Below, piece after piece: positions 7,357 to 59,880 of a stretch of 64,000 nucleotides of DNA. The translations under genes were made by a program, and so were the position numbers. The notes below the pieces were generated by a model that saw only the letters and a program-made list of their open reading frames with translations, was not told the origin of the DNA and made no database searches. Every line of letters begins with the position of its first letter. Positions within the stretch are counted from its first letter, which is position 1. Where the stretch lies: contig JAPLZC010000009.1 of assembly GCA_026395215.1 (NCBI GenBank), positions 8,711-72,710 of the forward strand, in the 5' to 3' direction. The DNA is from Candidatus Staskawiczbacteria bacterium. GTDB taxonomy: Bacteria; Patescibacteriota; Minisyncoccia; Minisyncoccales; Staskawiczbacteraceae.

Positions 7357-7393
7357 TGCAAAAAAGCTTCGTCATTAGTAATAAGAGCAATAC

Positions 7394-7427
7394 ACGTACT
7401 TTTTGGCCACGTGGCAAAAAAGTACGT
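7394..7427. repeat. 34-nt palindrome, left copy (ACGTACTTTTTGGCCACGTGGCAAAAAAGTACGT)
   Basis: Near-perfect palindrome centred on CACGTG, with one arm mismatch. Second copy at 8053-8086. Confidence 0.9.
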
Positions 7428-7479
7428 GTTAGTAAAAATATGATATAATGGAAAAATATAATCATAATATATAAAAAGA

Positions 7480-8040
7480 ATGAGGGAAATTTTAGAGGAA
7501 ATATTGTGGAGTATATATTATCAAACCGAGGAGGCTCACATTGGCGGACGGGGCGATGCCAGATTTTTTATTTTGAACGATATTATAAAAGATATTCATG
7601 ATTATACGGGCAAATATTTAACATCTAGGCGGTTGGCCTCGGCTGTGGTGGACTTAAATAGGCAGAAGTTAATACAGAAAAAGAAGGACTATGCGGGAAC
7701 GGTTTTGGTTTCTTTGACTGAAAAGGGAATTTTGCGGGCAATAAATTATAAATTTAGACGGCTGGGCAATAAAAAAGAAAAATGGGATGGCAAATGGCGT
7801 ATGGTGGCTTTTGATATACCCCGAGAATGCGAGAAAGGTAGGAAAGCGCTTGTCTATAGGCTAAAAACCGGAGGATTTTATGAACTGCAAGAAAGTATAT
7901 TTTTATATCCCTATGATTGCAAAAACGAAATTGACGCATTAACAAACTTTTTCAAAATTAAAAAGTATGTCAGGTTTGGCCTTTTGGATTTTATTGAGGG
8001 TCAAGACGGCATCAAATTTAAATTCGGAATAAATTCCTAG
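7480..8040 (+). CDS. PaaX-family-like regulator (N-terminal wHTH-like region plus PaaX_C/Cas2-like fold)
   Basis: WDGKWRMVAFDIPRECEKGRKALVYRLKTGGFYELQESIFLYPYD matches the PaaX C-terminal / Cas2-like signature. Confidence 0.55.
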   Translation: MREILEEILWSIYYQTEEAHIGGRGDARFFILNDIIKDIHDYTGKYLTSRRLASAVVDLNRQKLIQKKKDYAGTVLVSLTEKGILRAINYKFRRLGNKKEKWDGKWRMVAFDIPRECEKGRKALVYRLKTGGFYELQESIFLYPYDCKNEIDALTNFFKIKKYVRFGLLDFIEGQDGIKFKFGINS

Positions 8041-8052
8041 TGAGCGAAATAC

Positions 8053-8086
8053 ACGTACTTTTTTGCCACGTGGCAAAAAAGTACGT
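8053..8086. repeat. 34-nt perfect palindrome, right copy (ACGTACTTTTTTGCCACGTGGCAAAAAAGTACGT)
   Basis: Perfect palindrome. Flanking bases (ATACACGT...TTAGTAA) are also shared with the left copy. Confidence 0.9.
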
Positions 8087-8167
8087 ATTAGTAATGTTTG
8101 TATATGGTTAGTTATTATGGTTGGTTTTTGTTGTTTTGGCGTAATTAGTTTATTTTTTGCAAAAAAA

Positions 8168-8642: not shown

Positions 8643-8827
8643 GGTTTACTCCTTTCGTTTGAACATGCATGAGGTTTCCAGTGGCTGGCGGCCAAGCAAC
8701 CGGCGGCGAATGCTATATACATGGCGATTAAGCCGTAACTAGTGAAGCACATTAAGGCTGTTCCTACAGCGAGAAGAAAAGCAACCGTACCCCACTTCAT
8801 CAACGCCCATTTTTGTTTGTCATTCAT
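8639..8827 (-). CDS. Micro-ORF C, 62 aa small membrane protein (two hydrophobic helices)
   Basis: Start placed at ATG 8827-8825 (MNDKQKWALMKWGTVAFLLAVG...). This gives an ATGA overlap with ORF B and an AAAGGAG SD. The track start at 8869 lacks an SD. Confidence 0.5.
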   Translation of the reverse strand: MNDKQKWALMKWGTVAFLLAVGTALMCFTSYGLIAMYIAFAAGCLAASHWKPHACSNERSKP

Positions 8828-8952
8828 GGCTTGCTCCTTTTCGGTTTCCGTGTTCGGCGATAACTGCACGGAGGTCCATTACATTCGCGTCCGGTATTGC
8901 TACCCATGTTTAGACATCGTTCATGTCGGTTGGTACATTTCCACTTTTTCAT
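8824..8952 (-). CDS. Micro-ORF B, 42 aa, four-Cys basic peptide (MKKWKCTNRHERCLNMGSNTGRECNGPPCSYRRTRKPKRSKP)
   Basis: ATGA overlaps at both ends. AAAGGAG SD. Hand-translated. Confidence 0.4.
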   Translation of the reverse strand: MKKWKCTNRHERCLNMGSNTGRECNGPPCSYRRTRKPKRSKP

Positions 8953-9122
8953 GGCTTGCTCCTTTTCGGTTTGTCGGCTTTCCAGAAAGTTGCCTCGTTA
9001 GTATTATCGAGGTCGGTTTGACCGGCACTGTGAGCATTCACAATTGTCCATCCTCGCCGTTTTCGTTGGCTGATAGAACGATCCATGGATTGGTGGTTTG
9101 GGAATTTTTTGATTACTATCAC
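8949..9122 (-). CDS. Micro-ORF A, 57 aa hypothetical
   Basis: GTG start at 9122-9120 preceded by AAGAAAGGA. Ends in the shared ...KRSKP-TGA junction. Hand-translated. Confidence 0.35.
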   Translation of the reverse strand: MIVIKKFPNHQSMDRSISQRKRRGWTIVNAHSAGQTDLDNTNEATFWKADKPKRSKP

Positions 9123-19809: not shown

Positions 19810-19913
19810 CGGATTTACACAGAGGAAAGACGGATTTACACAAATCACGGATACAAAAAATCTGTGATCCGTGAAAATCCGTAAATAATCCGTGAAAATC
19901 TGTTTCATAGACT
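19809..19913 (+). repeat. ACGGAT-word intergenic repeat element, copy 1
   Basis: Core ACGGATTTACACAAATCACGGATACAAAAAATCTGTGATCCGTGAAAATCCGT is shared with copies at 29676-29781 and 31380-31482. Confidence 0.85.
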
Positions 19914-23478: not shown

Positions 23479-23550
23479 TAACTGCCTTGATGGTTCAAGG
23501 TGAGTTCTTTTCCAATTTCGATTTTGTTAACAACGAAAAGGAGACCGACC

Positions 23551-26500
23551 ATGATGACGAAGCTGTATCGCAATGACGGCGTGGTGGAAGTGTGTTTTAA
23601 TATCGAGAGTCCTAGACAGTTGACGGATGAAGAACGGCAGAAGATTGCTTGGCTTATTGCTAGGCAGTATGCTGGTTTGGACGCAAAATCGGCGCCGGCG
23701 CATGCGTTTAACGAATACGTGGAGATTGGTCCTCGGCTTCAGGTTGAGACACCTTTTTCCAGCAATGCTGTGGGTATCTGTCGGAATATTGGGACCAATG
23801 TGGTTACGCGCATGGAAGAGTCGCGTTTGTATCCGATTCGGGTGCAAGGACGCGGTTTGACTCGCGAAGAACTGGTTGCTATACATCTGGATAAAATGAC
23901 TCAAGCGGTCTATCCATTGTGTGGCATTGAAAGTTTTGACTCAAAGCACGAAGTAGTGCCGGTCAGGATGATTCCGGTTCTTACAGAAGGCGCAGAAGCC
24001 ATTCGACGCTACAACAACGAGATGGGTCTTGGTATGGACGAAGTGGATATCGCATTCTGTGTGAATCTCTTTGGTCAGAAGTATCGGCGTAATCCCACGG
24101 ATGTGGAATTGGTTCAACTCGGCAATATGAATAGTGAGCATTGCCGGCACAAATTGTGGAAGGGAAGAATTGTGATTGGTGGTGTGGTAATGCAAGAAAC
24201 ACTGTTGGATTTGGTGCGCGCGCCTTTGCGGCTTCGCGGACAATGCAACAGTATCCTGGCGTTCAATGATAATTCCGGATGTTTGGCCGGACCGGAAATT
24301 TGGGGCTTTGTGCCCGAGAATCCGGGTGATCCGTCAAAAATGATTCGGGTCAGAATTACTCAATACATCACGGCAACCGCGGAAACTCACAATCATCCCA
24401 CAGCTATTTGCCCCTTTCCTGGGGCGGCGACAAAAGATGGTGGTGAGATCCGCGATGAAAGCGCTACGGGGAGTGGTTCACGTGCGGGAATGGGATTTCA
24501 CGGACAATGTGTGGGAAATTTGCATTTGCCTGGTCATGAAATTCCGGGTGAGACGCTTGGCAAGGGAGAAATTCCTAAGTATGCTTCAGCTTTGAAAATC
24601 TTGATTGAAGGCACAAATGGTGCGTCGCACTATTGTAACGCTTTTGGCAGACCACTTGGTGGTGGTTTCTGTCGGACGTTTGATCAAATAGTCGCCGGAG
24701 AGAGACGTGGCTTTCACAAGCCAATTTTCTACGGTGGCGGTGTTGCGACAATTGATGCTCGGCATGTGATTAAAGGAGAAGCTGAAGTCGGTATGATGGT
24801 AATACGTTGGGGTGGCCCCGGCTTTGAGATTGGCCTTGGTGGCGGAGCAGCCTCCAGTTTGGGGCAGGGTGACAATACGGAAAGTTTGGATTATAAGTCC
24901 GTTCAACGGGGCAACCCGGAAATGGAAAACCGAGCTAACCGTGTAATTACTACCTGTACTGATTTGGGAGATAATAATCCCATTGTTGCAATCCATGATC
25001 AAGGTGCCGGTGGTCCGAGTAATGTGCTTACAGAGCTGGTTGAGGCACTAGGCGCGTTGATTGATGCTGACCAGATTACTTTGGGCGATAAAACAATGGC
25101 GTACCTGGCAATCTGGAGCGCAGAGTTCCAGGAAGGTTACGGCGCTCTTGTTCGTAGAGAAAATCTGTGGTTATTCCGAAAAATCTGTCAGCGCGAACGC
25201 GTGAATTGCGAGGTGGTGGGCGAGATTACTGGTGATCATCGGATTAAGGTAATCAGCTCCAAAACCAATGCGGTTCTCGTGGACTTGGATTTGCGGGATG
25301 TGTTAACGCATGCCCCGCAGAAGACCTTTGAATTCCAGCGGGTTGAACGCAAGTTTGATCCGCCAGTGATTCCGACCGATAAGACAGTTGAACAGTTGAT
25401 TGAGATGGTTTTTAGACTGCCATCGGTTGGGTCAAAGGGATTCCTTACGCGAAAGATTGACCGGTCAGTGACGGGTAGGGTTGCGTGCCAGCCCTGTTGC
25501 GGACCAACACAAATTCCGTGTGCTGATGTAGGCGTCCATCTGGACGGTTATTTCGGAGATTCAGGAGCGGCCGGAGCGCTTGGTGAACAGCCGAATGTGA
25601 TGTTCGTGAACTCGCAAGCGGGAGCGCGAATGTCACTTGGTGAAATGTTGACCAATTTGTGCGCGGCCAAAATTTCCGGCTTTCCAGACATCAAGACGCG
25701 CATTAATCAGATGGGTGCATTCAAATTGCCGGGCGAGGGCGCGCGACTGTGGGATGCCAATGTTGCTTTGCGCGACATGATTGTTGCTATGGGTGGAGCT
25801 GAACCAGACGGCGGAAAGGATTCGTCGTCTATGGTTGGCCTTGCCGGTGGCGAGAAAGTAAAAGCGCCCAGCGAAATGGTGGTGCTGGGTTATGCTCCGG
25901 TGCCAGATTGCAATAAGGTGCTCACGCCGGACTTCAAATATCCGGGACAAAGTCTCATTGGTTTCATTGATTTGGGGCATGGCAAAAACCGTATGGGCGG
26001 TTCGGCCTTGCTTCAGGCTTTGGGACAAGTGGGCGATGTCATTCCGGACGTGGATGATCCACTAGAATTGCGCCGTGCGTTTGACGCTGTACAGGAACTA
26101 ATTGGCCGTGGTCTCATTTCCGCTTATCACGATCGTAGTGATGGCGGACTGGTGGCGACTTTGGCCGAGATGTGCTTGTCGGCAAATTGCGGAGCAATGG
26201 TGGAGTTGAAAAGATGGGAAAATGTTGTTTCTGGCCTCTTTAACCAGGAACTGGGGATGGTGTTTGAGTATTCAGAGGAGAATGAACCTTTGATTGATAT
26301 GGTTTTAAGACAAGATTTTGGGATAGAGTGGTCCCGAATCGGTCAGACGACCATGTTAAAACAGTTGCTTATCATTACAAGACCGCATTCTCAAAGTAGT
26401 CCTAATGTCCGAATTCCACTCGGCACGCTTCGTCCTTGGTGGGAGGCCACAAGCACTCGCCTGGAAATGGAGCAGGCCAATCCGGAAACGGTGAGACAAG

Positions 26501-27393
26501 AGAGCGAGACGCACAAAAACCCGCAGGCGATTTCATATCATCTGACTTTCGTGCCTCAAGAAACAGCGCCGGAAGAATTGGTGTGGGATAATCGTCCAAA
26601 AGTTGCCATTCTTCGTGAAGAGGGAACAAACGGCGAGCGGGAAATGCAAGCGGCATTTGAGACAGCTGGTTGCGAAGTATGGGATGTTTGTATGCAGGAT
26701 TTGCTGGACGGCAAAATTTCTCTGGACTTGTTCCAGGGTCTGGTGGCCGCCGGCGGATTTTCATATATGGATGTCTTTGAGAGCGGAAAAGGTTGGGCGG
26801 CAGGAATACTGTTTAACCCGACTTTGCGGGAAATGTTTGATCGGTTTTACCACCGGTCTGACACTTTTTCGTTGGGCGTCTGCAATGGCGCCCAGCTTCT
26901 GCCTCTCATCCGGCGGGTACCTTTCAAGGACATGCCGGAAGAAGAGCAATCGAGGTTTGTGGAAAATACTTCTCGCCGGTTTGAGTCGCGGTGGTCGCTC
27001 GTGAAAATCCTTCCGAGTCCATCGATATTTTTTACTGGTATGGAAGGCTCGGTGCTTGGTGTTCATGTGGATCATGGGGAAGGTAGGATGATCTTCCCTG
27101 ATCGGACAGTTGAGGTAAGAGTACAAAGAGGTCAGCAAATTCCTATGGCGTTTGTTGATCCTGAACACCGCCTGACCGAACAGTATCCGTACAATCCGAA
27201 TGGGTCGCCAATGGGATTCTGCGCTATGTGCACGCCAGATGGGCGACACACGGCAATGATGCCTCATCCCGAACGGGCGTTTCGAAAGTTGCAGTGGCAC
27301 TATTTGCCCGAATCGTGCAAACGAGATTGGCCGGTGTCACCGTGGCTAAAGATGTTCCAGAACGCCCGCAAGTGGTGTTTAAAAAATAAGTAG
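23551..27393 (+). CDS. purL: Phosphoribosylformylglycinamidine (FGAM) synthase, single-chain large type
   Basis: NSEHCRHK, ETHNHPTAICPFPGAATKDGGEIRDE, C-terminal GATase GVCNGAQLL...MMPHPER. AAAGGAG SD before ATG 23551. G+C-rich codons. Confidence 0.9.
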   Translation: MMTKLYRNDGVVEVCFNIESPRQLTDEERQKIAWLIARQYAGLDAKSAPAHAFNEYVEIGPRLQVETPFSSNAVGICRNIGTNVVTRMEESRLYPIRVQGRGLTREELVAIHLDKMTQAVYPLCGIESFDSKHEVVPVRMIPVLTEGAEAIRRYNNEMGLGMDEVDIAFCVNLFGQKYRRNPTDVELVQLGNMNSEHCRHKLWKGRIVIGGVVMQETLLDLVRAPLRLRGQCNSILAFNDNSGCLAGPEIWGFVPENPGDPSKMIRVRITQYITATAETHNHPTAICPFPGAATKDGGEIRDESATGSGSRAGMGFHGQCVGNLHLPGHEIPGETLGKGEIPKYASALKILIEGTNGASHYCNAFGRPLGGGFCRTFDQIVAGERRGFHKPIFYGGGVATIDARHVIKGEAEVGMMVIRWGGPGFEIGLGGGAASSLGQGDNTESLDYKSVQRGNPEMENRANRVITTCTDLGDNNPIVAIHDQGAGGPSNVLTELVEALGALIDADQITLGDKTMAYLAIWSAEFQEGYGALVRRENLWLFRKICQRERVNCEVVGEITGDHRIKVISSKTNAVLVDLDLRDVLTHAPQKTFEFQRVERKFDPPVIPTDKTVEQLIEMVFRLPSVGSKGFLTRKIDRSVTGRVACQPCCGPTQIPCADVGVHLDGYFGDSGAAGALGEQPNVMFVNSQAGARMSLGEMLTNLCAAKISGFPDIKTRINQMGAFKLPGEGARLWDANVALRDMIVAMGGAEPDGGKDSSSMVGLAGGEKVKAPSEMVVLGYAPVPDCNKVLTPDFKYPGQSLIGFIDLGHGKNRMGGSALLQALGQVGDVIPDVDDPLELRRAFDAVQELIGRGLISAYHDRSDGGLVATLAEMCLSANCGAMVELKRWENVVSGLFNQELGMVFEYSEENEPLIDMVLRQDFGIEWSRIGQTTMLKQLLIITRPHSQSSPNVRIPLGTLRPWWEATSTRLEMEQANPETVRQESETHKNPQAISYHLTFVPQETAPEELVWDNRPKVAILREEGTNGEREMQAAFETAGCEVWDVCMQDLLDGKISLDLFQGLVAAGGFSYMDVFESGKGWAAGILFNPTLREMFDRFYHRSDTFSLGVCNGAQLLPLIRRVPFKDMPEEEQSRFVENTSRRFESRWSLVKILPSPSIFFTGMEGSVLGVHVDHGEGRMIFPDRTVEVRVQRGQQIPMAFVDPEHRLTEQYPYNPNGSPMGFCAMCTPDGRHTAMMPHPERAFRKLQWHYLPESCKRDWPVSPWLKMFQNARKWCLKNK

Positions 27394-29675: not shown

Positions 29676-29781
29676 CGACGGATTTTTACAGATTAGAAAC
29701 GGATTAACACAGCATCACGGATACGAAAATCTGTGATTCGTGAAAATCCGTAATTCATTTGTGTAAATCCGTTTCATACAA
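29676..29781 (+). repeat. ACGGAT-word intergenic repeat element, copy 2
   Basis: Shares the core ...ATCACGGATACGAAAATCTGTGATTCGTGAAAATCCGT... and the terminal inverted words ACGGATT / TGTGTAAATCCGT. Confidence 0.85.
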
Positions 29782-31379: not shown

Positions 31380-31482
31380 ACAGATTAACACGGATTGATG
31401 ACGGATTTGCACAATATCACGGATAAGAAAAATCTGTGATTCGTGGAAATCCGTTATTTATATGTGTAAATCCGTATTATAA
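31380..31482 (+). repeat. ACGGAT-word intergenic repeat element, copy 3
   Basis: Same core and terminal words as copies 1 and 2. Ends at the rpmJ start codon. Confidence 0.85.
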
Positions 31483-36018: not shown

Positions 36019-36040
36019 ATTGAACCTCACTCAATAAGGT

Positions 36041-36146
36041 TTGACATTTTTGATAAAATTGGTAATGTTATATTGCAACTTGAAAAATAGTTTCGAATAG
36101 TTCGGAAATTTTCCAGGTGAGTATTCTTTTTAAAAGGAGAAAGTTC
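36041..36146 (+). promoter_or_regulatory. Promoter-leader repeat, copy A (TTGACA...GTTATATT, leader hairpin, SD)
   Basis: The first roughly 50 nt are nearly identical to copy B at 36401-36504. Confidence 0.55.
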
Positions 36147-36398: not shown

Positions 36399-36400
36399 AT

Positions 36401-36504
36401 TTGACAATTTTAGTAAAATTGATAAGGTTATATTGCACCTTGAAAAATAACTCCGAACATCTCGGAACTTTTTTTTGGTGTGGTGAAGAACCAAGGAGAT
36501 AAAA
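36401..36504 (+). promoter_or_regulatory. Promoter-leader repeat, copy B
   Basis: TTGACA at 36401-36406, exactly 360 nt after copy A. Leader hairpin TCCGA-acatc-TCGGA followed by T8. AAGGAG SD. Confidence 0.55.
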
Positions 36505-47670: not shown

Positions 47671-47955
47671 ATGATTTCTAAGGAAGAGGTACAACATATT
47701 GCGAGTCTTGCTAGGTTGGAACTTTCCGAGCAGGAAATAGGAAAAATGCAGAAGGATCTGACGGAAATTTTGGATTATTTTAAGTTGTTAAATAAAGCCC
47801 CCACCAAAATTTCCCGAAGGGAAAATTTAGGCGGGCAGGCCCAAAATTTACGAAAAGATGAAGTTATTTCGCAAGATAGGGAAGTTGTAGAAAAGCTAGT
47901 TGCTGCTGCGCCGGATAAGAAAGATGGATATATTAAAGTAAAAACCATATTATAA
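47671..47955 (+). CDS. gatC: Asp/Glu-tRNA amidotransferase subunit C
   Basis: EEVQHIASLARLELSEQE; precedes gatA. Confidence 0.88.
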   Translation: MISKEEVQHIASLARLELSEQEIGKMQKDLTEILDYFKLLNKAPTKISRRENLGGQAQNLRKDEVISQDREVVEKLVAAAPDKKDGYIKVKTIL

Positions 47956-48048
47956 TACTAATCTGCAAATCTTATCCTAATCTGCGAAAATGCGAATCCG
48001 TAGATTAGGGCTTTTGTAGATTAGAATGAAAATCCGTAAATTAGTATT

Positions 48049-49485
48049 ATGAATCTCACAGAACTTACAATTAAACAAGCCCACGAAGGATTAAAAAACA
48101 AGGAATTTACTTCTGTTGATTTAACAAAGGCTTATTTGGATAAGATAAAAAAAGTTGATGGGGAATTGAATGCTTATTTAACCGTGACTGAAAAGTTGGC
48201 GTTAGAACAAGCGATTCGAGCCGATGAGAGAATCGCCCTGAGCAAAGCCGAAGGGCAGGATTTTCCGATGCTTTGTGGAATTCCTTGCGCTATAAAAGAC
48301 GCAATAATGGTTGATGGAGAAAAATGTACAGCTGCTTCAAAAATTTTGGAAAATTATGTAGCCCCTTACGACGCAACTGTGATAAAAAAACTTAAAGAAC
48401 AAGGAGTTGTAATTTTAGGCAAAACAAATTTGGACGAATTTGCCATGGGAGGTTCGGGAGAAAACTCTGCTTATGGTCCTACAAAAAATCCACACGACAA
48501 GACTCGCGTTGCCGGAGGGAGTTCTTCGGGTTCAGCGGCTTGTGTGGCTGCAAATGAGGCTTGTTTTTCGCTTGGTTCTGATACAGGTGGGTCCATAAGG
48601 CTTCCATCATCATTTTGTGGCACAGTGGGGCTAAAACCAACCTATGGAGCTGTTTCTAGATATGGATTAATTCCTTTTGGATCATCTTTAGATCAAATTG
48701 GACCAATCACAAAAAATGTTGATGATGCAGAGACTGTTTTTAATGCGATTTGTGGAAAAGATAAAATGGACGCCACCAGCACGGATTACAAGTTTCAAGT
48801 TTCCCTGGCCGGGCAGGCAAGTTCCAAGTTACAAGGTTTGCGCATTGGAGTTCCTAAAGAATATTTTGTTAAGGGCATAGACCCTGAAGTTGAAAAAATA
48901 GTTAGGAGCACAATTAAAAAGGCCGAGGAAGCCGGCGCTAAAATTGTTGAAATAAGTTTACCAAATACAGAATTTGCTTTAGCTTGTTATTATATTATTG
49001 CTCCGTGTGAAGCTTCTGCTAACTTGGCCAGGCTTGATGGCGTAAGATACGGCTTATCAGTAGATGGTAAAGATTTATTAGATGTTTATCTAAAGAGCAA
49101 AGGGCATGGTTTTGGAGCCGAGGTTAAACGCAGAATAATGATTGGAACTTATGCTTTGTCATCTGGATATTACGACGCATATTACAAAAAAGCCCAGGAA
49201 ATTAGACAACTAGTAAAACAGGATTTTGCTAAAGCTTTTGAGAAGGTTGATTTAATATTTTGCCCAGTTTCTCCGGTTCCTGCAATTAAAATAGGTGAGA
49301 GGACAGACGATCCACTCTCAATGTATTTAATGGACATTTACACAGTTTCCGTTAACCTGGCCGGTTTGCCTGGGCTTTCTTTACCGGTTGGCAAAACAAA
49401 AGAGGGTTTGCCGGTTGGTTTGCAAATTATTGGGAATCATTTTCAGGAGAATAAGATATTGGCAGTGGCGTCGCAATTGGAATAA
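48049..49485 (+). CDS. gatA: Asp/Glu-tRNA amidotransferase subunit A
   Basis: Amidase signature GGSSSGSAACVAA, DTGGSIRLPSSFCG. Confidence 0.93.
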   Translation: MNLTELTIKQAHEGLKNKEFTSVDLTKAYLDKIKKVDGELNAYLTVTEKLALEQAIRADERIALSKAEGQDFPMLCGIPCAIKDAIMVDGEKCTAASKILENYVAPYDATVIKKLKEQGVVILGKTNLDEFAMGGSGENSAYGPTKNPHDKTRVAGGSSSGSAACVAANEACFSLGSDTGGSIRLPSSFCGTVGLKPTYGAVSRYGLIPFGSSLDQIGPITKNVDDAETVFNAICGKDKMDATSTDYKFQVSLAGQASSKLQGLRIGVPKEYFVKGIDPEVEKIVRSTIKKAEEAGAKIVEISLPNTEFALACYYIIAPCEASANLARLDGVRYGLSVDGKDLLDVYLKSKGHGFGAEVKRRIMIGTYALSSGYYDAYYKKAQEIRQLVKQDFAKAFEKVDLIFCPVSPVPAIKIGERTDDPLSMYLMDIYTVSVNLAGLPGLSLPVGKTKEGLPVGLQIIGNHFQENKILAVASQLE

Positions 49486-54695: not shown

Positions 54696-55433
54696 TTGGT
54701 TACAGTGAAAAATGCAAAAGACATGATATGGGTAGCGGTTGACGTTTCAACCCAGGCAGAAGCGATTGGTCAAATCAAAACCCTGGTTGACAACGGCATA
54801 AGAAGAATCAAGTTGGGGCTTGAGCTTCTTTCAACAGGGGACCGGGAAAGTGTGATTCACTTCGCACAGCTATCCGGGTGCGAGGTTTTTTACGACGGGA
54901 AGTTTGACGACATTCCCCACACGGTTGGCGCGGCGGCAAAAGTTGTCGCTAGTCGTGGAGTGGCAATGTTCAACGTTCATGCTTCGGCTGGGCGTAAAGC
55001 CATGGAAGCGGCGGTAGCGAACAAGGGTCAAAGCAATGTTCTTGTTGTGACCCTGCTCACTTCTCTGAGCAAAGAAGACCTCCGCGATTTGGGATATCCG
55101 GAATCCATAAGCAAAGACGTTGTCGTACGAGCGATGGCGTCCTGCGCTGCTGAGTGTAAGGTAGATGGTATCATCTGCTCGGCTCAGGAAGCCCAGTTGG
55201 TGCGATCTGTTATGCCACAAGGCATGATTGTCACGCCGGCGATTCGGCCTGTTTGGGCAGTAGTCGGCGATCAGAAGCGTCCGACAACTCCGACTGATGC
55301 AATCAAGGCTGGCGCAACGGATTTGGTTATTGGACGACCCATCACAAATCCTCCGCCGGAAATCGGTTCTCCTACAGAAGCTCTGAAGCGAATCGTTGAC
55401 GAAATCGCCGAGGCTATGCAAGTTACACCGTAA
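54696..55433 (+). CDS. pyrF: Orotidine-5'-phosphate decarboxylase
   Basis: VAVD, FYDGKFDDIPHTV (DxKxxDIPxT box), LVIGRPIT. Start is ambiguous: TTG 54696, GTG 54705 or ATG 54723. Confidence 0.8.
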   Translation: MVTVKNAKDMIWVAVDVSTQAEAIGQIKTLVDNGIRRIKLGLELLSTGDRESVIHFAQLSGCEVFYDGKFDDIPHTVGAAAKVVASRGVAMFNVHASAGRKAMEAAVANKGQSNVLVVTLLTSLSKEDLRDLGYPESISKDVVVRAMASCAAECKVDGIICSAQEAQLVRSVMPQGMIVTPAIRPVWAVVGDQKRPTTPTDAIKAGATDLVIGRPITNPPPEIGSPTEALKRIVDEIAEAMQVTP

Positions 55434-55461
55434 TCTCACAAACCAGAAAGGAAACAGAACA

Positions 55462-56187
55462 ATGAGAACACCACAAACAATTACCGATTTGCTTCGGCTG
55501 AAATTTGGTGGATTGGGAAGTTTCCCAACACCAGAAGAGGTCCTGACATGGTTTAACCTGTTACAAGCCGGTTGGGTTCATAACGGGGATCCCAAGAAGC
55601 CTCATGCGGTGCTTCATTCCGGTTTACATAGTACAGGATTTTTTCTTTGCAAGCGTGTGCTGGCATACGGCAACCTGCGGGAAATCCTGGCAGAATGTAT
55701 CGTAAACAAGCTCTATACCGCCGGTGGTGAGAGCTTCATGAAAAGTATTGGAGGCGTATTTGGCTCACCGTATTCCTCCATTCTTTTGGCTGGCGACATC
55801 GCTCGGTTGATGGAGGTGAAGGTTTACGTGCCCGAGAAAGATCCGGCCGATCCTGACGGCAAGAAGATGCGCTTCAAGCCCGATGATCCGATTCCTGCTG
55901 GCACAATACTTCTGCAAATCGAGGAGCTCGTTACCAAGTTTGACAGTGGTGACGCAACTAAACAGGCAATTATCGACGGCAATTCTAATCCGGTGGAATT
56001 CGCCAAGTTCGTCGGTGTATTGGTGTATCGTCCGCCGGAGATTGCCCCCGAGCTACCTGACGGTCGCACAATCATACCATTCATTCAGAAGCGCGTGGAT
56101 GCTTGGGATCCCAAGTATTGTCCACTTTGCAGTAAAGGCTCAAAAGTGGTTTCTCCCAAAACCAACTGGGCTGAGCTCACTGCTTAA
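55462..56187 (+). CDS. Type I phosphoribosyltransferase, orotate PRTase-like, with a C-terminal CPLC motif
   Basis: HAVLHSGLHSTGFF resembles the PyrE F-L-SG-S box. ILLQIEELVTKFDSG is a degenerate PRPP loop. Start moved to ATG 55462 behind a GAAAGGAAA SD. Confidence 0.5.
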   Translation: MRTPQTITDLLRLKFGGLGSFPTPEEVLTWFNLLQAGWVHNGDPKKPHAVLHSGLHSTGFFLCKRVLAYGNLREILAECIVNKLYTAGGESFMKSIGGVFGSPYSSILLAGDIARLMEVKVYVPEKDPADPDGKKMRFKPDDPIPAGTILLQIEELVTKFDSGDATKQAIIDGNSNPVEFAKFVGVLVYRPPEIAPELPDGRTIIPFIQKRVDAWDPKYCPLCSKGSKVVSPKTNWAELTA

Positions 56188-56300: not shown

Positions 56301-57842
56301 ATGGGAAAAGTTAAGAAATTGAAGAAAAAAATAATTCGGCGCGGGAAAACTAAAAAATTGGTGAAGACCAGGAAGATTTTGAATAGGAAAAAAAGAAACC
56401 CGACAAAAGGCCGGAAGGGTATTTTGACGGGCCCGTCACAATCTCGCCGAAGGCGAGTTTGGTCGGGAAAGAAAAAGATTGTTGTTCGGAAAAAGACAGT
56501 TAAAAAAATAAAGCAAGTTAAAAAAGTTGTGAGGAGGGATGAAGGGTTTCCGGTGGAGGCTTTGTTTAAGGCGAAGATTAAGGTTATTGGAGTTGGCGGA
56601 GGGGGAGGGTCAATTGTTTCTGAAATTGGAAGGTCTTTGGAAAAGGCAACATTTGTTGTTGCAGATACAGACATTAGAGCTTTAAAAAAGAAAGCGGGAA
56701 TAAAATATTTTTGGTTTGGCGAAGAGCTGACTCACGGTTTGGGAACAGGGGTAAATGTTGAATTGGCAAAACAGGCAGCCGAATCGGCAAGGGGGAAAAT
56801 AAGCGGATTTTTTAAGGATCAGGATATTATAATTTTTGTTGCTTCTTTGGGTGGAGGACTGGGTTCTGGAGCCACTCAGGTTTTTGCTGAAGCCGCAAAA
56901 GAATTTGGCGGGATTACTTTTGGCATTTTTACAATGCCTTTTAAATTTGAGGGCAAAAATAAATACCGTATAGCGCAAAACGCCTTAAAAATATTAAAAC
57001 AATCGTTGAATGTTTCGCTGGTTATTCCTAATGAAAAGATTTTTAAAATTATTGATAGCTCAACTCCAATCACAAATGCTTTTTCAACTGTTAATATAAG
57101 TTTGATAGGATCTTTAGAAAGTTTAATAGACTTAATTTACAATCCTGGAGTTATAAATATAGATTTTGCCGATTTGCGTACAATTTTAAGAGGCAGGGGA
57201 AATTCGGCCTTTTTGAATACTATTGAGGAGTTTGGTAAAGATAGAGTGGAAAAAACTTGCGAAAATATTTTTAAAAATCCCTTGCTACAGAATAGCAGTT
57301 TTAAAGCTGATAAAATTTTGTTTGACATTGCCGGTTCAGAAAATCTTTCAATGTTTGAGGTGCAAAAAATAAGCAGTCATATTGCTAATTTAAATCCTAC
57401 GGCAAAAATTATTTTTGGAATCTCCAAAGATCATAAATTAAAAAATAAAATAAAGACGACAATTTTAATGACTGGGTTACCCTCTGGGTCACAGGTTAAG
57501 GAAGAAATTACTAAGGCTATTACAGTCAAGGAAATAGAACCAGTAAAAGCAGTTGCTGTTAAAAAGAAAAAATTAGTACCGAGTAAAAAGACAAAAGAGA
57601 AAAAGTCTGTTTCTTTTATTCCTGTTTTTGAGACATCCAGGCCTTCAATTTCAGTTTCGGAACAAAAAGTGGATATTATTCAAAACGTGGAAAAAAAAGG
57701 CCTACCTGCTAGCAGGCAGGCAATAAGGAGAAGCGGTTTAGAAATTAAGGAGGCCGAGGAATTGGAGGAAAAAAAGAAAGTAGACCAAGAAAAAGAATGG
57801 GAAATCCCAGCATTTTTAAGGAAAGTAAAATTCAAGAGCTAG
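56301..57842 (+). CDS. ftsZ: Cell division protein FtsZ with a roughly 90-aa polybasic N-terminal extension
   Basis: IKVIGVGGGGGSIVSEI, SLGGGLGSGATQVF. C-terminal WEIPAFLRK peptide. Confidence 0.92.
   Translation: MGKVKKLKKKIIRRGKTKKLVKTRKILNRKKRNPTKGRKGILTGPSQSRRRRVWSGKKKIVVRKKTVKKIKQVKKVVRRDEGFPVEALFKAKIKVIGVGGGGGSIVSEIGRSLEKATFVVADTDIRALKKKAGIKYFWFGEELTHGLGTGVNVELAKQAAESARGKISGFFKDQDIIIFVASLGGGLGSGATQVFAEAAKEFGGITFGIFTMPFKFEGKNKYRIAQNALKILKQSLNVSLVIPNEKIFKIIDSSTPITNAFSTVNISLIGSLESLIDLIYNPGVINIDFADLRTILRGRGNSAFLNTIEEFGKDRVEKTCENIFKNPLLQNSSFKADKILFDIAGSENLSMFEVQKISSHIANLNPTAKIIFGISKDHKLKNKIKTTILMTGLPSGSQVKEEITKAITVKEIEPVKAVAVKKKKLVPSKKTKEKKSVSFIPVFETSRPSISVSEQKVDIIQNVEKKGLPASRQAIRRSGLEIKEAEELEEKKKVDQEKEWEIPAFLRKVKFKS
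56396..56467 (+). repeat. Intragenic roughly 70-nt palindromic element, copy in ftsZ
   Basis: AAACCCGACAAAAGG...TTTTGACGGGCCCGTCACAAT-CTCGCC-gaa-GGCGAG-TTTGGTCGGG. Homologous to 59554-59623. Confidence 0.8.
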
Positions 57843-57973
57843 TAAGGACATCAAAAACACCAGAAACATGTAGGTAAATAAAACAACATAAGCAGCTCGC
57901 ACCCTTCTTTGGGAAAATATATAAAAGGCTGTAAAGTTTAAGAGCTAATAAAAACATCAAAAACACAAAAAAT

Positions 57974-58879
57974 ATGTCAGATGAAAAAAAACCTGCTAAC
58001 GCAGGAGGTGAAATAAAAAAAATAATCATTCCTGTTGCCGGTCTTGGCACCAGGTTTTTGCCGTTGTCTAGGGCAATTTCCAAAGATTTTTTCCCCTTGG
58101 TTGATAAACCTGTTATCCAATATATTATTGAAGAAGCAAAAAAATCCGGCATTAAAGAAATTGTTTTTGTGACAAGCCCAGGCCAGAAAACAATTTTTAA
58201 TTATTTTAAAAAATCTCCCGAGCTGGAAGCAACTCTTGTAAAGAGAAAGAAAGATAAAATATTAAAGGAAATGAAGGAATTTGAGGAAATATTTGAAGGT
58301 ATTTCTTTTTCTCATGTTGTGCAGAAAAAACCTCTCGGTGACGGACACGCTATTTTGCAGGCGGCAAAGGTAATAAATAATGAGGCGGTGGCTGTTTCAT
58401 TTGGCGACGATGTTGTTGATGCAGACGAGCCGGCAATATTGCAACTGATAAACATTTTTAAAACATGTAATGCGCCGGTGGTGGCATTGAAACAGTTGCC
58501 GGCAGAAAAAGTTCCGGCATATGGAGTTGTTGCCGTGGAAAAAATTGCAAACCACTTGTATAAAATAAAAAAAATAGTGGAGAAACCAGATCCTTCGCAA
58601 ATTCCATCTAATCTTGTAATTGTTGGAAAATATGTTTTAACACTGGAAGTTTTTGACTACCTTAAAAAAGCAAAGCCATCGGCAAAAGGGGAAATAATTT
58701 TGGCTGAGGTTTTTGATAAAATGCTTTCCGACGGTAAGGTTATTTATGGTTGCGAGTTAAAAGGCGAGTGGCTAGAGTGCGGAGACAAATTAAAATGGCT
58801 TAAATCATTTTTTTATCTGGCGTTGAATGACCCAAGGTTTAAAGAAGAATTAAAACAGTATTTAAAAACAATAAAATAG
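57974..58879 (+). CDS. galU: UTP-glucose-1-phosphate uridylyltransferase
   Basis: IIPVAGLGTRFLPLSRAISKDFFPLVDKPVIQY. Confidence 0.88.
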   Translation: MSDEKKPANAGGEIKKIIIPVAGLGTRFLPLSRAISKDFFPLVDKPVIQYIIEEAKKSGIKEIVFVTSPGQKTIFNYFKKSPELEATLVKRKKDKILKEMKEFEEIFEGISFSHVVQKKPLGDGHAILQAAKVINNEAVAVSFGDDVVDADEPAILQLINIFKTCNAPVVALKQLPAEKVPAYGVVAVEKIANHLYKIKKIVEKPDPSQIPSNLVIVGKYVLTLEVFDYLKKAKPSAKGEIILAEVFDKMLSDGKVIYGCELKGEWLECGDKLKWLKSFFYLALNDPRFKEELKQYLKTIK

Positions 58880-58893
58880 CGTATAATAACTAA

Positions 58894-59880
58894 ATGATAT
58901 ACGATTTAATTATTATAGGCGGTGGTCCGGCTGGAATTACAGCTGGTATTTATGCTGGCAGACAGCGAATGAAAACTCTTTTAATGACAAAAGAGTATGG
59001 AGGGCAAATGGCCAGAAAAGCCACGGAGATTTGTAATTATCCTGGTTTTGATAAATGTACTGGCCCCGAACTTATAGAAAAATTTGTGAATCATTTAGAA
59101 AAGCAGGAATCTGTAGAAATAGAATTTTCTGAAGCGGAAAAAATCACAAAAGATGGCGCTGTTTTTACAGTTACTAGTACACAAAATAATAATTTTCAAG
59201 CAAAATCAATAATTATTGCCACTGGAGCAGACCCAAGGCCTTTGGAGGCTATAGGAGAAAAAGAATTCATTGGTAAGGGGGTTGGATATTGTGTAACTTG
59301 TGATGGGCCAATATTCAAAAACAAAGATGTAGTTATTGTTGGCGGAGGAAATGCCGGTTTTGAGGCTGCCTTATTTATGATAAATTATGCTAACAAGATT
59401 TATGTTTTAGAATATGGCCCACAAGTTAAAGCCGACCAAATAAATCAAAATGAAGCCAAAAAATCAGATAAAATTGAAGTTATTACCAACGCCCTTGTAA
59501 AAGAAATAAAGGGTAAGGATTTCGTAGAAGCTCTAGTTTATCGAGATGTTTCAAAACCCGACAAAAGCCAAGGGCATTTTGACGGGCCCGCCACAATGCC
59601 GGCGGAACCGGCTTTGGGTGGGGAAGAGAAAACTTTGCAAGTGCAAGGAGTTTTTATAGAAATTGGCACACAGCCTGCAACTTCTTTGGCAAAAGGATTG
59701 GTTGATTTTACAAAGAGAGATGAAATTATAATTGCCACGGAAACTTTTGCTACCAAAACCCCGGGTCTTTTTGCCGTGGGTGATTGCAATGCCGGTCCAT
59801 ATAAACAAATAGTCACAGCCGCCGGTGAAGGTTGTAAAGCCTCCCTAGCCGCCTACGATTATTTAAGAACATTAAAGTAA
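58894..59880 (+). CDS. trxB: Thioredoxin-disulfide reductase
   Basis: YDLIIIGGGPAGITAG, redox CVTCDG, VVGGGNAGFEAA, GDC...Q. Confidence 0.9.
   Translation: MIYDLIIIGGGPAGITAGIYAGRQRMKTLLMTKEYGGQMARKATEICNYPGFDKCTGPELIEKFVNHLEKQESVEIEFSEAEKITKDGAVFTVTSTQNNNFQAKSIIIATGADPRPLEAIGEKEFIGKGVGYCVTCDGPIFKNKDVVIVGGGNAGFEAALFMINYANKIYVLEYGPQVKADQINQNEAKKSDKIEVITNALVKEIKGKDFVEALVYRDVSKPDKSQGHFDGPATMPAEPALGGEEKTLQVQGVFIEIGTQPATSLAKGLVDFTKRDEIIIATETFATKTPGLFAVGDCNAGPYKQIVTAAGEGCKASLAAYDYLRTLK
59554..59623 (+). repeat. Intragenic roughly 70-nt palindromic element, copy in trxB
   Basis: AAACCCGACAAAAGCC...TTTTGACGGGCCCGCCACAAT-GCCGG-cggaa-CCGGC-TTTGGGTGGGG. Confidence 0.8.

Follow-up and report, generated by a model that had tools for sequence, protein, structure and literature searches.

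A palindromic repeat inside ftsZ and trxB of a Staskawiczbacteria genome, probably one of a REPIN- or RPE-like family in Patescibacteria

Rickettsia palindromic elements (RPEs) are palindromic repeats of ~100-150 bp that lie in-frame in Rickettsia genes, each of them described as encoding a conserved peptide (Ogata et al. 2000, summarized in PMC10969869). Here we describe a repeat of similar behavior from a 64,000-nt stretch of a Candidatus Staskawiczbacteria contig (JAPLZC010000009.1, positions 8,711 to 72,710; hereafter the window), in which two segments of 66-69 nt are found in-frame in ftsZ and trxB. We consider it probable that these segments are copies of a small non-autonomous palindromic repeat, similar to RPEs and to the doublets of repetitive extragenic palindromes known as REPINs, which has spread within and between genomes of Patescibacteria (Candidate Phyla Radiation, CPR). 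Like RPEs (PMC10969869), the element is a short palindromic repeat located in-frame in unrelated housekeeping genes of a reduced-genome bacterium, would add an extra peptide at tolerated positions of its hosts, also occurs outside protein genes and encodes no transposase. The original prediction, made from the letters of the window, had drawn this parallel, which is apt for the behavior, namely in-frame insertion in many unrelated housekeeping genes, and not for family membership. RPEs reside in Alphaproteobacteria, whereas the element here belongs to Patescibacteria, has about half the length, is an inverted dimer of hairpins with single-hairpin copies besides, uses several reading frames and, as a family, is associated with a gene for a GIY-YIG nuclease. 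The two are set side by side by description, as an analogy, and a sequence relationship is not expected. The same prediction knew of no such element from this kind of genome; no account of such repeats in Patescibacteria was found in the literature searched, a recent paper on Patescibacteria tRNA introns included, and the family is apparently undescribed.

Repetitive extragenic palindromes (REPs) and REPINs share with the element an imperfect palindrome unit of ~30-35 nt, an inverted doublet that looks like the active form next to singlets, copies that are conserved for long, and one small nuclease-type gene that carries an adjoining repeat (PMC3116915, PMC3337134). REPs are extragenic by definition, whereas 78 of the 146 copies considered here lie in open reading frames (ORFs) and others in rRNA, RNase P RNA and tRNA-fragment contexts; these and all later counts of copies, hosts and neighbors are among the matches listed from our pattern scans (~0.95 Mb of element-bearing loci). 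The associated gene also differs, being a GIY-YIG nuclease that has the element at the 5' side alone and, in most cases, a tRNA gene at the 3' side, and not the Y1/HUH enzyme known as REP-associated tyrosine transposase (RAYT). MITEs, or miniature inverted-repeat transposable elements, such as Correia, ERIC and BOX are likewise small, non-autonomous, dispersed and hairpin-forming, and occasional in-frame fusions with host ORFs have been reported (PMC10969869). In contrast to MITEs of the DDE type, the element lacks a target-site duplication and consists of two tandem hairpins instead of terminal inverted repeats around a core; its head and tail are inverted complements in one variant, termed 'T', and a parent insertion sequence (IS) with the same ends was not seen in the scanned loci. 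From the palindrome-associated elements derived from IS200/IS605 (PATEs) we recognize the hairpins and the lack of target-site duplication; the left flank is A-rich (A at position -1 in 75%) and not a fixed tetranucleotide. Finally, the GIY-YIG genes recall segB of phage T4, which is located between tRNA genes or abuts them and is mobile in the manner of a cassette (PMC2330249). The protein here differs in being ~85 aa long and the catalytic domain alone, with predicted activity. In its cassette the 5' part of a tRNA is present as a duplicate that the element interrupts, and the element also exists in many solitary copies.

Two copies of one inverted hairpin dimer

The two stretches that the original prediction had singled out, 56396-56467 in ftsZ and 59554-59623 in trxB, were found as quoted and are two copies of one element, the limits of which are here refined to 56399..56467 (+; 69 nt, 'T' variant) and 59557..59622 (+; 66 nt, 'C' variant with a G.U pair in the outer stem). 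The first host gene, ftsZ (56301..57842, +), encodes 513 aa with the tubulin/FtsZ domain starting from residue 92 and residues 1-91 forming a K/R-rich extension, in which the copy resides; the second, trxB (58894..59880, +), encodes a flavoprotein of the thioredoxin-disulfide reductase family with 328 aa. Both proteins are 100% identical to NCBI proteins of a Candidatus Staskawiczbacteria metagenome-assembled genome (MAG). The AAA bases at the head and the GAA or AAA bases at the tail look like the preferred target and not like part of the element proper; the single empty site inspected, that of trxB, already reads AAG|GAA.

With two copies only in the window, in hosts that lie ~3 kb apart on the same strand, the likeness might be put down to chance, an assembly artefact, gene conversion from one gene to the other or a protein motif common to both, an explanation to which we give practically no credit. 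The 22-mer core ATTTTGACGGGCCCGYCACAAT occurs twice on the + strand against 0 expected from 100 shuffles. The pair aligns with 81% mean column identity over 114 columns, flanks included, and a profile built from it matches the window at these two places only (E = 6e-24 and 2e-21). A covariance model run with filters off gives 80.9 bits for the trxB copy and 79.8 bits for the ftsZ copy, its sole further match being a weak one of 40 nt at 47800-47839. The head 14-mer taken alone, with two mismatches allowed, is not significant (0.96 expected); the full element is. A shared protein motif is further contradicted by the reading frames, since the segments as first delimited begin at codon position 3 in ftsZ ((56396-56301) mod 3 = 2) and at codon position 1 in trxB ((59554-58894) mod 3 = 0), exactly as had been proposed along with the correctly quoted peptides NPTKGRKGILTGPSQSRRRRVWSG and KPDKSQGHFDGPATMPAEPALGG. 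Public scans settle the matter, with the same element present in independent assemblies (NCBI, JGI, ENA, Logan) and in dozens of other genes.

The unit of the element is an imperfect hairpin of ~33 nt, and the full element ranges from 57 to 75 nt, most commonly 66 or 69, with the layout CCCGACAAAAG-(GC tip)-CATTTTGACGGG followed by CCCG(C/T)CA(C/T)AAT-(GC tip)-TTTGG(G/T)CGGG. Hairpin 1 consists of CCCG, an A.A mismatch, CAAAA, a G.A mismatch and a variable GC-rich tip before CATTTTGACGGG, and hairpin 2 of CCCG(C/T)C, a bulged A, (C/T)AA and a second variable GC tip before TTTGG(G/T)CGGG. According to the fold and the pair counts, hairpin 1 of the ftsZ copy spans 56399..56431 (+), with the stem CCCG / A.A mismatch / CAAAA, a GC-rich tip and the 3' arm ATTTTGACGGG, and hairpin 2 spans 56432..56467 (+) as CCCGTCACAAT-CTCGCCgaaGGCGAG-TTTGGTCGGG; the encoded peptide is (N)PTKGRKGILTGPSQSRRRRVWSG. 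The same evidence places hairpin 1 of the trxB copy at 59557..59586 (+) and hairpin 2, CCCGCCACAAT-GCCGGcggaaCCGGC-TTTGGGTGGG, at 59587..59622 (+), with the encoded peptide PDKSQGHFDGPATMPAEPALGG. In the ftsZ copy, reverse-complementing hairpin 1 nearly yields hairpin 2, where the A.A mismatch returns as T.T, and this near complementarity, general in the 'T' variant, leads us to view the element as an inverted dimer of one hairpin unit. The original prediction had described the tail as inverted relative to the head; this pairing is perfect in the 'T' variant, including the ftsZ copy, whereas the partner of the tail in most copies is the core's second half. It had also noted that the tip hairpins differ in sequence while remaining hairpins, and pairing is indeed kept in both copies.

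Both copies fold as two adjacent hairpins (z = -4.1 and -4.5), and z stays at about -4 on either strand. Among 71 distinct dimers, 96.1% of cells are paired against 86.1% with shuffled partners and at most 53% with slid partners, and changes to both partners of a pair are seen in 178 cells, where the shuffles give 49. Pair 44-76, for example, appears as CG 36, AU 13, GC 6 and UA 6, and pair 48-72 as CG 25, GC 22, UA 13 and AU 6. Compensatory changes therefore keep both hairpins in the 71 distinct full copies, while the peptide varies with the frame, which bears out the view that conservation acts at the level of the nucleic acid. That said, the search patterns fixed either hairpin 1 or the core, so that hairpin 1 is invariant through ascertainment, and it is hairpin 2 and the tips that carry the evidence from covariation. 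Mismatches of the G.T and A.C types are equally frequent (24 and 21), which indicates symmetrical maintenance of pairing, as in palindromic DNA, rather than maintenance specific to the sense RNA; on this ground, selection acting on the latter was rejected. No Rfam family was detected in the whole window, nor in a permissive search with the ftsZ copy, where the best score was 15 bits against a gathering threshold of 49.5.

A dispersed family and its host genes

A core-pattern scan of one genome per GTDB species yielded 23 loci, most of them in MAGs of Staskawiczbacteria (six assemblies) and of other Patescibacteria, and a hairpin-1 pattern scan of metagenomes yielded at least 120 loci. A profile search of the DNA of these scanned loci gave 154 matches, which correspond to at least 146 distinct copies, comprising 93 dimers and 53 single hairpin-1 units; thus both the imperfect palindrome unit and the inverted doublet of a REPIN are present, and the search of related genomes for the core, suggested with the original prediction, uncovered a dispersed family. 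No match to the element was found in viral contigs, phage records or plasmid records. Already among the first 25 copies, 19 were within long ORFs in sense orientation. In the complete set, dimers occur 49 times in sense within an ORF, 9 times in antisense and 35 times outside long ORFs, and single hairpins 12, 8 and 33 times, respectively. The 78 intragenic copies fall into 47 host families, a dispersal comparable to that of RPEs. Hosts within the first 25 copies, those named by Pfam among them, are GyrA, GyrB, TsaD, TIM, L23, Hsp20, phosphoglucomutase, a TrwB-like ATPase, FtsZ, TrxB, the gamma subunit of ATP synthase, Dus, a DNA alkylation repair protein, SecA, a class I aminoacyl-tRNA synthetase and a class I aldolase.

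One contig labeled as a Candidatus Aenigmatarchaeota archaeon MAG (L002, JBAZQV010000029.1; scanned loci carry L numbers) holds a bacterial GyrA with the element. This contig is probably misbinned, because its flanks are ~80% identical in DNA to a Patescibacteria contig (L019). Misbinning may also account for the labels of other short element-bearing contigs, such as that given as Gammaproteobacteria (L011), and we group L005, L009 and L013 here as well.

The trxB copy is a true insertion. An alignment of orthologues, one of the checks proposed beforehand, shows that TrxB carries 21 extra residues with no counterpart in 11 aligned relatives, one of which is 88% identical, and all other listed TrxB homologues have 305-318 aa against 328 aa here. 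On a syntenic contig the empty site reads TCA AAG|GAA GAA, against TCA AAA(66 nt)GAA GAG for the filled one, with no target-site duplication. Solved AhpF/TrxR structures align to residues 3-219 and 242-325 of TrxB, on either side of a 22-residue gap, which places the insert between two adjacent residues of a beta-turn. Another Staskawiczbacteria TrxB (P0023; alignment A2, columns 247-254) has a different insertion of seven residues, PSTGSGQ, in the same loop, which suggests that this turn is a site tolerant of insertion.

The K/R-rich N-terminal extension in which the ftsZ copy lies, annotated as coding by NCBI, is itself present in nearly all Staskawiczbacteria homologues, whereas the element peptide is restricted to 5 of 120 FtsZ homologues, at different offsets and in the same frame. 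We observed this hypervariable Lys/Arg-rich extension (56301-56575 of the window) in almost all Staskawiczbacteria FtsZ proteins (homologues P0122-P0240), with a median of ~105 residues before the IKVIGIGG motif and the GTPase domain, and up to 291 in the longest case.

Copies in genes preserve the reading frame of their hosts. The length is divisible by three in 35 of 40 copies in sense within ORFs, against 13 of 27 outside ORFs, and all three phases are used across the copies. The dominant reading is KPDKSPxGHFDGPATISPKASLGG, the reading of the ftsZ copy (NPTK..ILTGPSQ..) also recurs, and hybrid copies start in one frame and end in another, the lengths of their two tips compensating for each other; the proposal that the element is read in different frames thus extends to frame switches inside single copies. 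Such frame-preserving lengths and compensating tips point to selection on an intact reading frame and not to excision from the RNA, and because the frame is preserved we expect the element to be translated with its host protein, an example of a predicted peptide across the junction of element and host being ...VSKPDKSQGHFDGPATMPAEPALGGEEK...

Removal from the RNA deserves a word, since introns and insertions in rRNA are unusually abundant in Patescibacteria (PMC13011429) and the element forms a stable hairpin that also turns up in genes for rRNA and RNase P RNA. If it were an intervening sequence, excised like an intron or by RNase III, the extra peptide would be absent from the proteins. We hold this to be very unlikely, given that excision needs neither the preserved frame, nor the lack of stops, nor the compensating tips of the copies in ORFs, and that no match to Rfam families, ribozymes and introns included, was obtained. 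Neither a group I nor a group II intron would fit into 66-69 nt, and if RNase III removed the hairpin, the mRNA would be left cut and not rejoined.

In structural RNA genes the element is found as a single hairpin. RNase P RNA holds one at about nt 20-50, the expected position of helix P3, in two loci, and others are located within genes for 16S and 23S rRNA, with one more upstream of a 23S gene at a distance of ~40 nt; by Rfam coordinates, the structural-RNA hairpins are at L070 6604-6632, L141 2967-2995 (-), L120 740-768, L052 3879-3909 and L076 703-734.

A second hairpin family, CCTGCCCGCAATGC...GCAGGCGGG with a length of ~39-45 nt, has similar flanks (A|...|GAA) and is nested in the hairpin 2 tip of some copies, where it adds 39 nt and keeps the frame. 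It was further seen in a 16S gene, immediately behind the start codon of GyrA and upstream of an additional GIY-YIG gene. Its loci are L021 6746-6790, L023 2960, L083 4116, L101, L120 681, L019 and L053 (just after the GyrA ATG) and L156 (upstream of the GIY-YIG gene).

tRNA-associated GIY-YIG cassettes and the mode of movement

Of 75 copies, 75% have A directly ahead of the element, and behind it the first base is G in 59% and the second A in 81%. The junction reads AAA|GAA where the site is a gene and GGTA|GAGC in contexts derived from tRNA. Direct repeats at the element ends are no commoner in these copies than in shuffles. The gene for dihydrouridine synthase (Dus) illustrates both target and orientation: two genomes carry the element at the identical codon position in opposite orientations, both in-frame (L004 1309-1377 and L074 6649-6711), which may reflect either an inversion in place or a repeatedly hit site, and the site, AAA|GAGCG, resembles the tRNA D-stem junction.

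We clustered all ORFs within 400 nt of the copies and found one recurrent neighbor of mobile type, a small GIY-YIG nuclease gene of ~85 aa (Pfam PF01541) whose family is widespread in Patescibacteria. The element lies 8-25 nt upstream of the start codon in 15 of the 21 such genes of the scanned loci, nine times in direct and six times in inverted orientation. As a control drawn by protein similarity alone, eight genes were looked up, of which seven were on record and five of these seven had the element at the same place. NusB, RNase III, S19, a sigma factor, AbiEii and DUF4015, which also recur beside the copies, represent either housekeeping genes or unrelated ones, found at orthologous sites, and were dismissed as candidates for mobility. 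No further neighbor of mobile type is placed as closely against the element. Searches of the GIY-YIG protein against NCBIfam and the Protein Data Bank (PDB) returned nothing informative, with a weak N-terminal match to a group I intron endonuclease model.

These genes are usually part of a cassette beside a tRNA gene, with a characteristic order. The first 20-35 nt of a tRNA gene are copied, ending in the D-loop or the anticodon loop, and are followed by the element, the next 3-7 nt of that tRNA, a short spacer, the GIY-YIG ORF and the complete tRNA gene, whose U8-A9-G10 often serves as the stop codon of the ORF. The tRNA varies by locus (Ile, Val, Thr, Arg, His, Gly, Phe), and in related genomes the cassette precedes either tRNA-Ile or tRNA-Val. 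Examples are L020 5330-5830, L039 7060-7600 (-), L081 1200-1700, L130 250-790 (-), L055 2560-3110, L153 600-1030 and L145 590-1030. Deleting the element from each of the 146 copies, with boundary shifts of +/-3 nt, restored no tRNA as judged by ARAGORN, so the copies next to tRNA genes are not simple insertions into intact tRNA genes, an idea that was thus discarded.

With this arrangement in mind, one can tentatively envisage the hairpin repeats as non-autonomous partners of the tRNA-cassette nuclease, which would recognize or create the hairpin dimer and spread it through the genome, a mobile system of a new kind in CPR bacteria. Insertion itself proceeds without target-site duplication and with a preference for A|GA junctions, those in tRNA-gene fragments as well as those in genes. 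Intragenic copies with an intact frame and no stops are probably transcribed and translated with the host protein, where they would form an inserted loop of ~22 residues, Gly/Pro-rich and hydrophilic, as in the beta-turn of TrxB and the basic N-terminal tail of FtsZ, and frame-breaking copies would presumably be purged. For the step of mobilization itself, the ~85-aa nuclease encoded next to tRNA genes, with the element just upstream of its start codon, is a possible candidate. Since no such GIY-YIG gene is present in the window, the two window copies would be solitary derivatives. No description of a link between GIY-YIG enzymes and REP-like repeats was found in the literature.

A Y1 (HUH) single-strand transposase would be the conventional means of moving such hairpins, making them either true REPs or REPINs with a RAYT, or miniature elements derived from IS200/IS605 of the PATE kind. 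Imperfect hairpins with conserved mismatches, an inverted dimer and insertion without duplication are classic for these systems (compare PMC3337134), and the conserved base 5' of the element would suit them as well. In three loci (L061, L102, L045), a gene for a 243-aa Y1_Tnp protein, IS200-like and RAYT-like, is located 170-216 nt from a single hairpin 1. This gene is, however, flanked on both sides by a different perfect palindrome, GGTGGGACGTCSGACGTCCCACC, a third copy of which lies in-frame inside its coding sequence (in L061, palindromes at 213-235, 489-511 and 1028-1050, gene at 284-1012); this points to a REP family of its own, and the pair looks like a separate REP-RAYT-type system. 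No Y1/HUH gene flanked by the element itself was found in the ~0.95 Mb of element-bearing loci. A bias toward one replication strand, as would fit an IS200/IS605-type mechanism, was absent in copies outside ORFs, where the orientation relative to positive GC skew showed no preference (16/35 and 17/33); this argues against lagging-strand insertion, with the skew of the whole locus being a crude proxy. We therefore judge mobilization by a Y1 enzyme to be unlikely.

The element might instead be kept for a cellular role, such as a protein binding site, a signal for recombination or replication, or a determinant of mRNA stability or translation pausing. Pairing is maintained by covariation, and the element is more conserved than the essential genes around it at orthologous sites: GyrA has it at the same position in four loci, three of which, when compared, are 92-94% identical in the element against 70-81% in 300-nt flanks, and TsaD shows 86% against 73-74%. 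The ftsZ copies of several species have tip 2 in common, and the copy is seemingly retained across species 72-73% identical in FtsZ; some insertions are thus old and well kept. The recurrence of the same hairpin at the P3 position of RNase P RNA in two genomes, and the sense bias in ORFs, would also suit a function. Against it stand the equal tolerance of G.T and A.C, with no sign of selection on the sense RNA, the occurrence of both orientations even at one orthologous site, the heterogeneity of hosts and positions (47 families) and the close relatives that lack the element in trxB. Moreover, the search patterns were built on the conserved core and favored conserved copies, so that part of the apparent conservation is ascertainment. 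A cellular role is in our opinion quite improbable, and the element would be selfish rather than useful, a small non-autonomous repeat that works like a REPIN or RPE.

Several observations weigh against this reading. The evidence for the mode of movement is comparative, drawn from arrangements in different genomes. The 64-kb window contains no GIY-YIG gene of the family, and no nuclease or transposase of any kind was found beside its two copies. Most GIY-associated copies belong to a slightly different hairpin-2 subfamily, with at least one (L148) of the intragenic type, and the association could as well mean homing of the nuclease to the element, or use of the hairpins as promoter, terminator or 5' untranslated region. 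The conservation of the element above its flanks could reflect a selected function or gene conversion and not pure selfishness. A structure model of TrxB from an alignment of 12 sequences was too poor to use (mean predicted local distance difference test score 57). Finally, the excess of sense over antisense copies in ORFs (61 to 17) is not due to stop codons, because the antisense strand is mostly open; given the lack of skew preference and the two orientations at the Dus site, a filter on the encoded peptide is the more likely cause than a property of insertion.

The genomes of Patescibacteria rank among the most reduced and most tightly packed of bacteria, and yet a selfish-looking repeat resides inside their essential genes. 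A phenomenon long seen as a rickettsial curiosity would thus recur independently in another lineage of reduced genomes, which makes the element of interest for genome reduction, mobile DNA and CPR biology. It may lie behind some lineage-specific short insertions in the proteins and RNAs of CPR bacteria, offers a natural experiment on how proteins tolerate or recruit loops of ~22 residues, and its copies can mislead alignment, homology modeling and the analysis of phylogenetic markers in CPR genomes. Should the GIY-YIG link hold true, a REP/MITE-like family would for the first time be seen to depend on a GIY-YIG enzyme and not on a Y1 or DDE transposase, with a self-repairing mode of insertion next to tRNA genes, and in the smallest bacterial genomes it would actively remodel essential proteins as well as structural RNAs such as RNase P RNA and rRNA.

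Other repeats and features of the window

The weak match at 47800..47839 (-), CCCGCCTAAATTTTCCCttcgGGGAAATTTTGGTGGG, is an uncertain, degenerate single hairpin inside gatC (47671-47955), scoring 31.8 bits with a rough E of 1.7e-5. It encodes PTKISRRENLGG, and GatC is not lengthened against its solved homologues, so that there is no insertion relative to these.

The window has a G+C content of ~36% and a GC skew that is positive throughout. Islands with G+C of 0.49-0.51 against the background of ~0.36 were observed at 23500-27393 and 54696-55433 (with 55396-56187); they contain a 1297-aa single-chain formylglycinamide ribonucleotide (FGAR) amidotransferase (PurL) and an orotidine monophosphate (OMP) decarboxylase, with an adjoining ORF with no Pfam match. 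These nucleotide-synthesis genes look horizontally acquired. Another island lies at 36-38 kb.

A repeat of ~66 nt composed of CACGGAT / ATCCGTG motifs, unrelated to the element, is present in three or four copies, at 19844-19909, 29713-29778 and 31416-31481 (and 48027-48055). Further repeats occur in two copies each, at 7374-7435 and 8033-8094, 36040-36112 and 36400-36472, 57825-57871 and 57931-57977, and 8823-8847 and 8948-8972. Among these two-copy repeats are the palindrome ACGTACTTTTTTGCCACGTGGCAAAAAAGTACGT, an exact 25-nt repeat, a pair 360 nt apart that begins with TTGACA and looks promoter-like, and a 47-nt repeat found at the end of ftsZ and again before the next gene.

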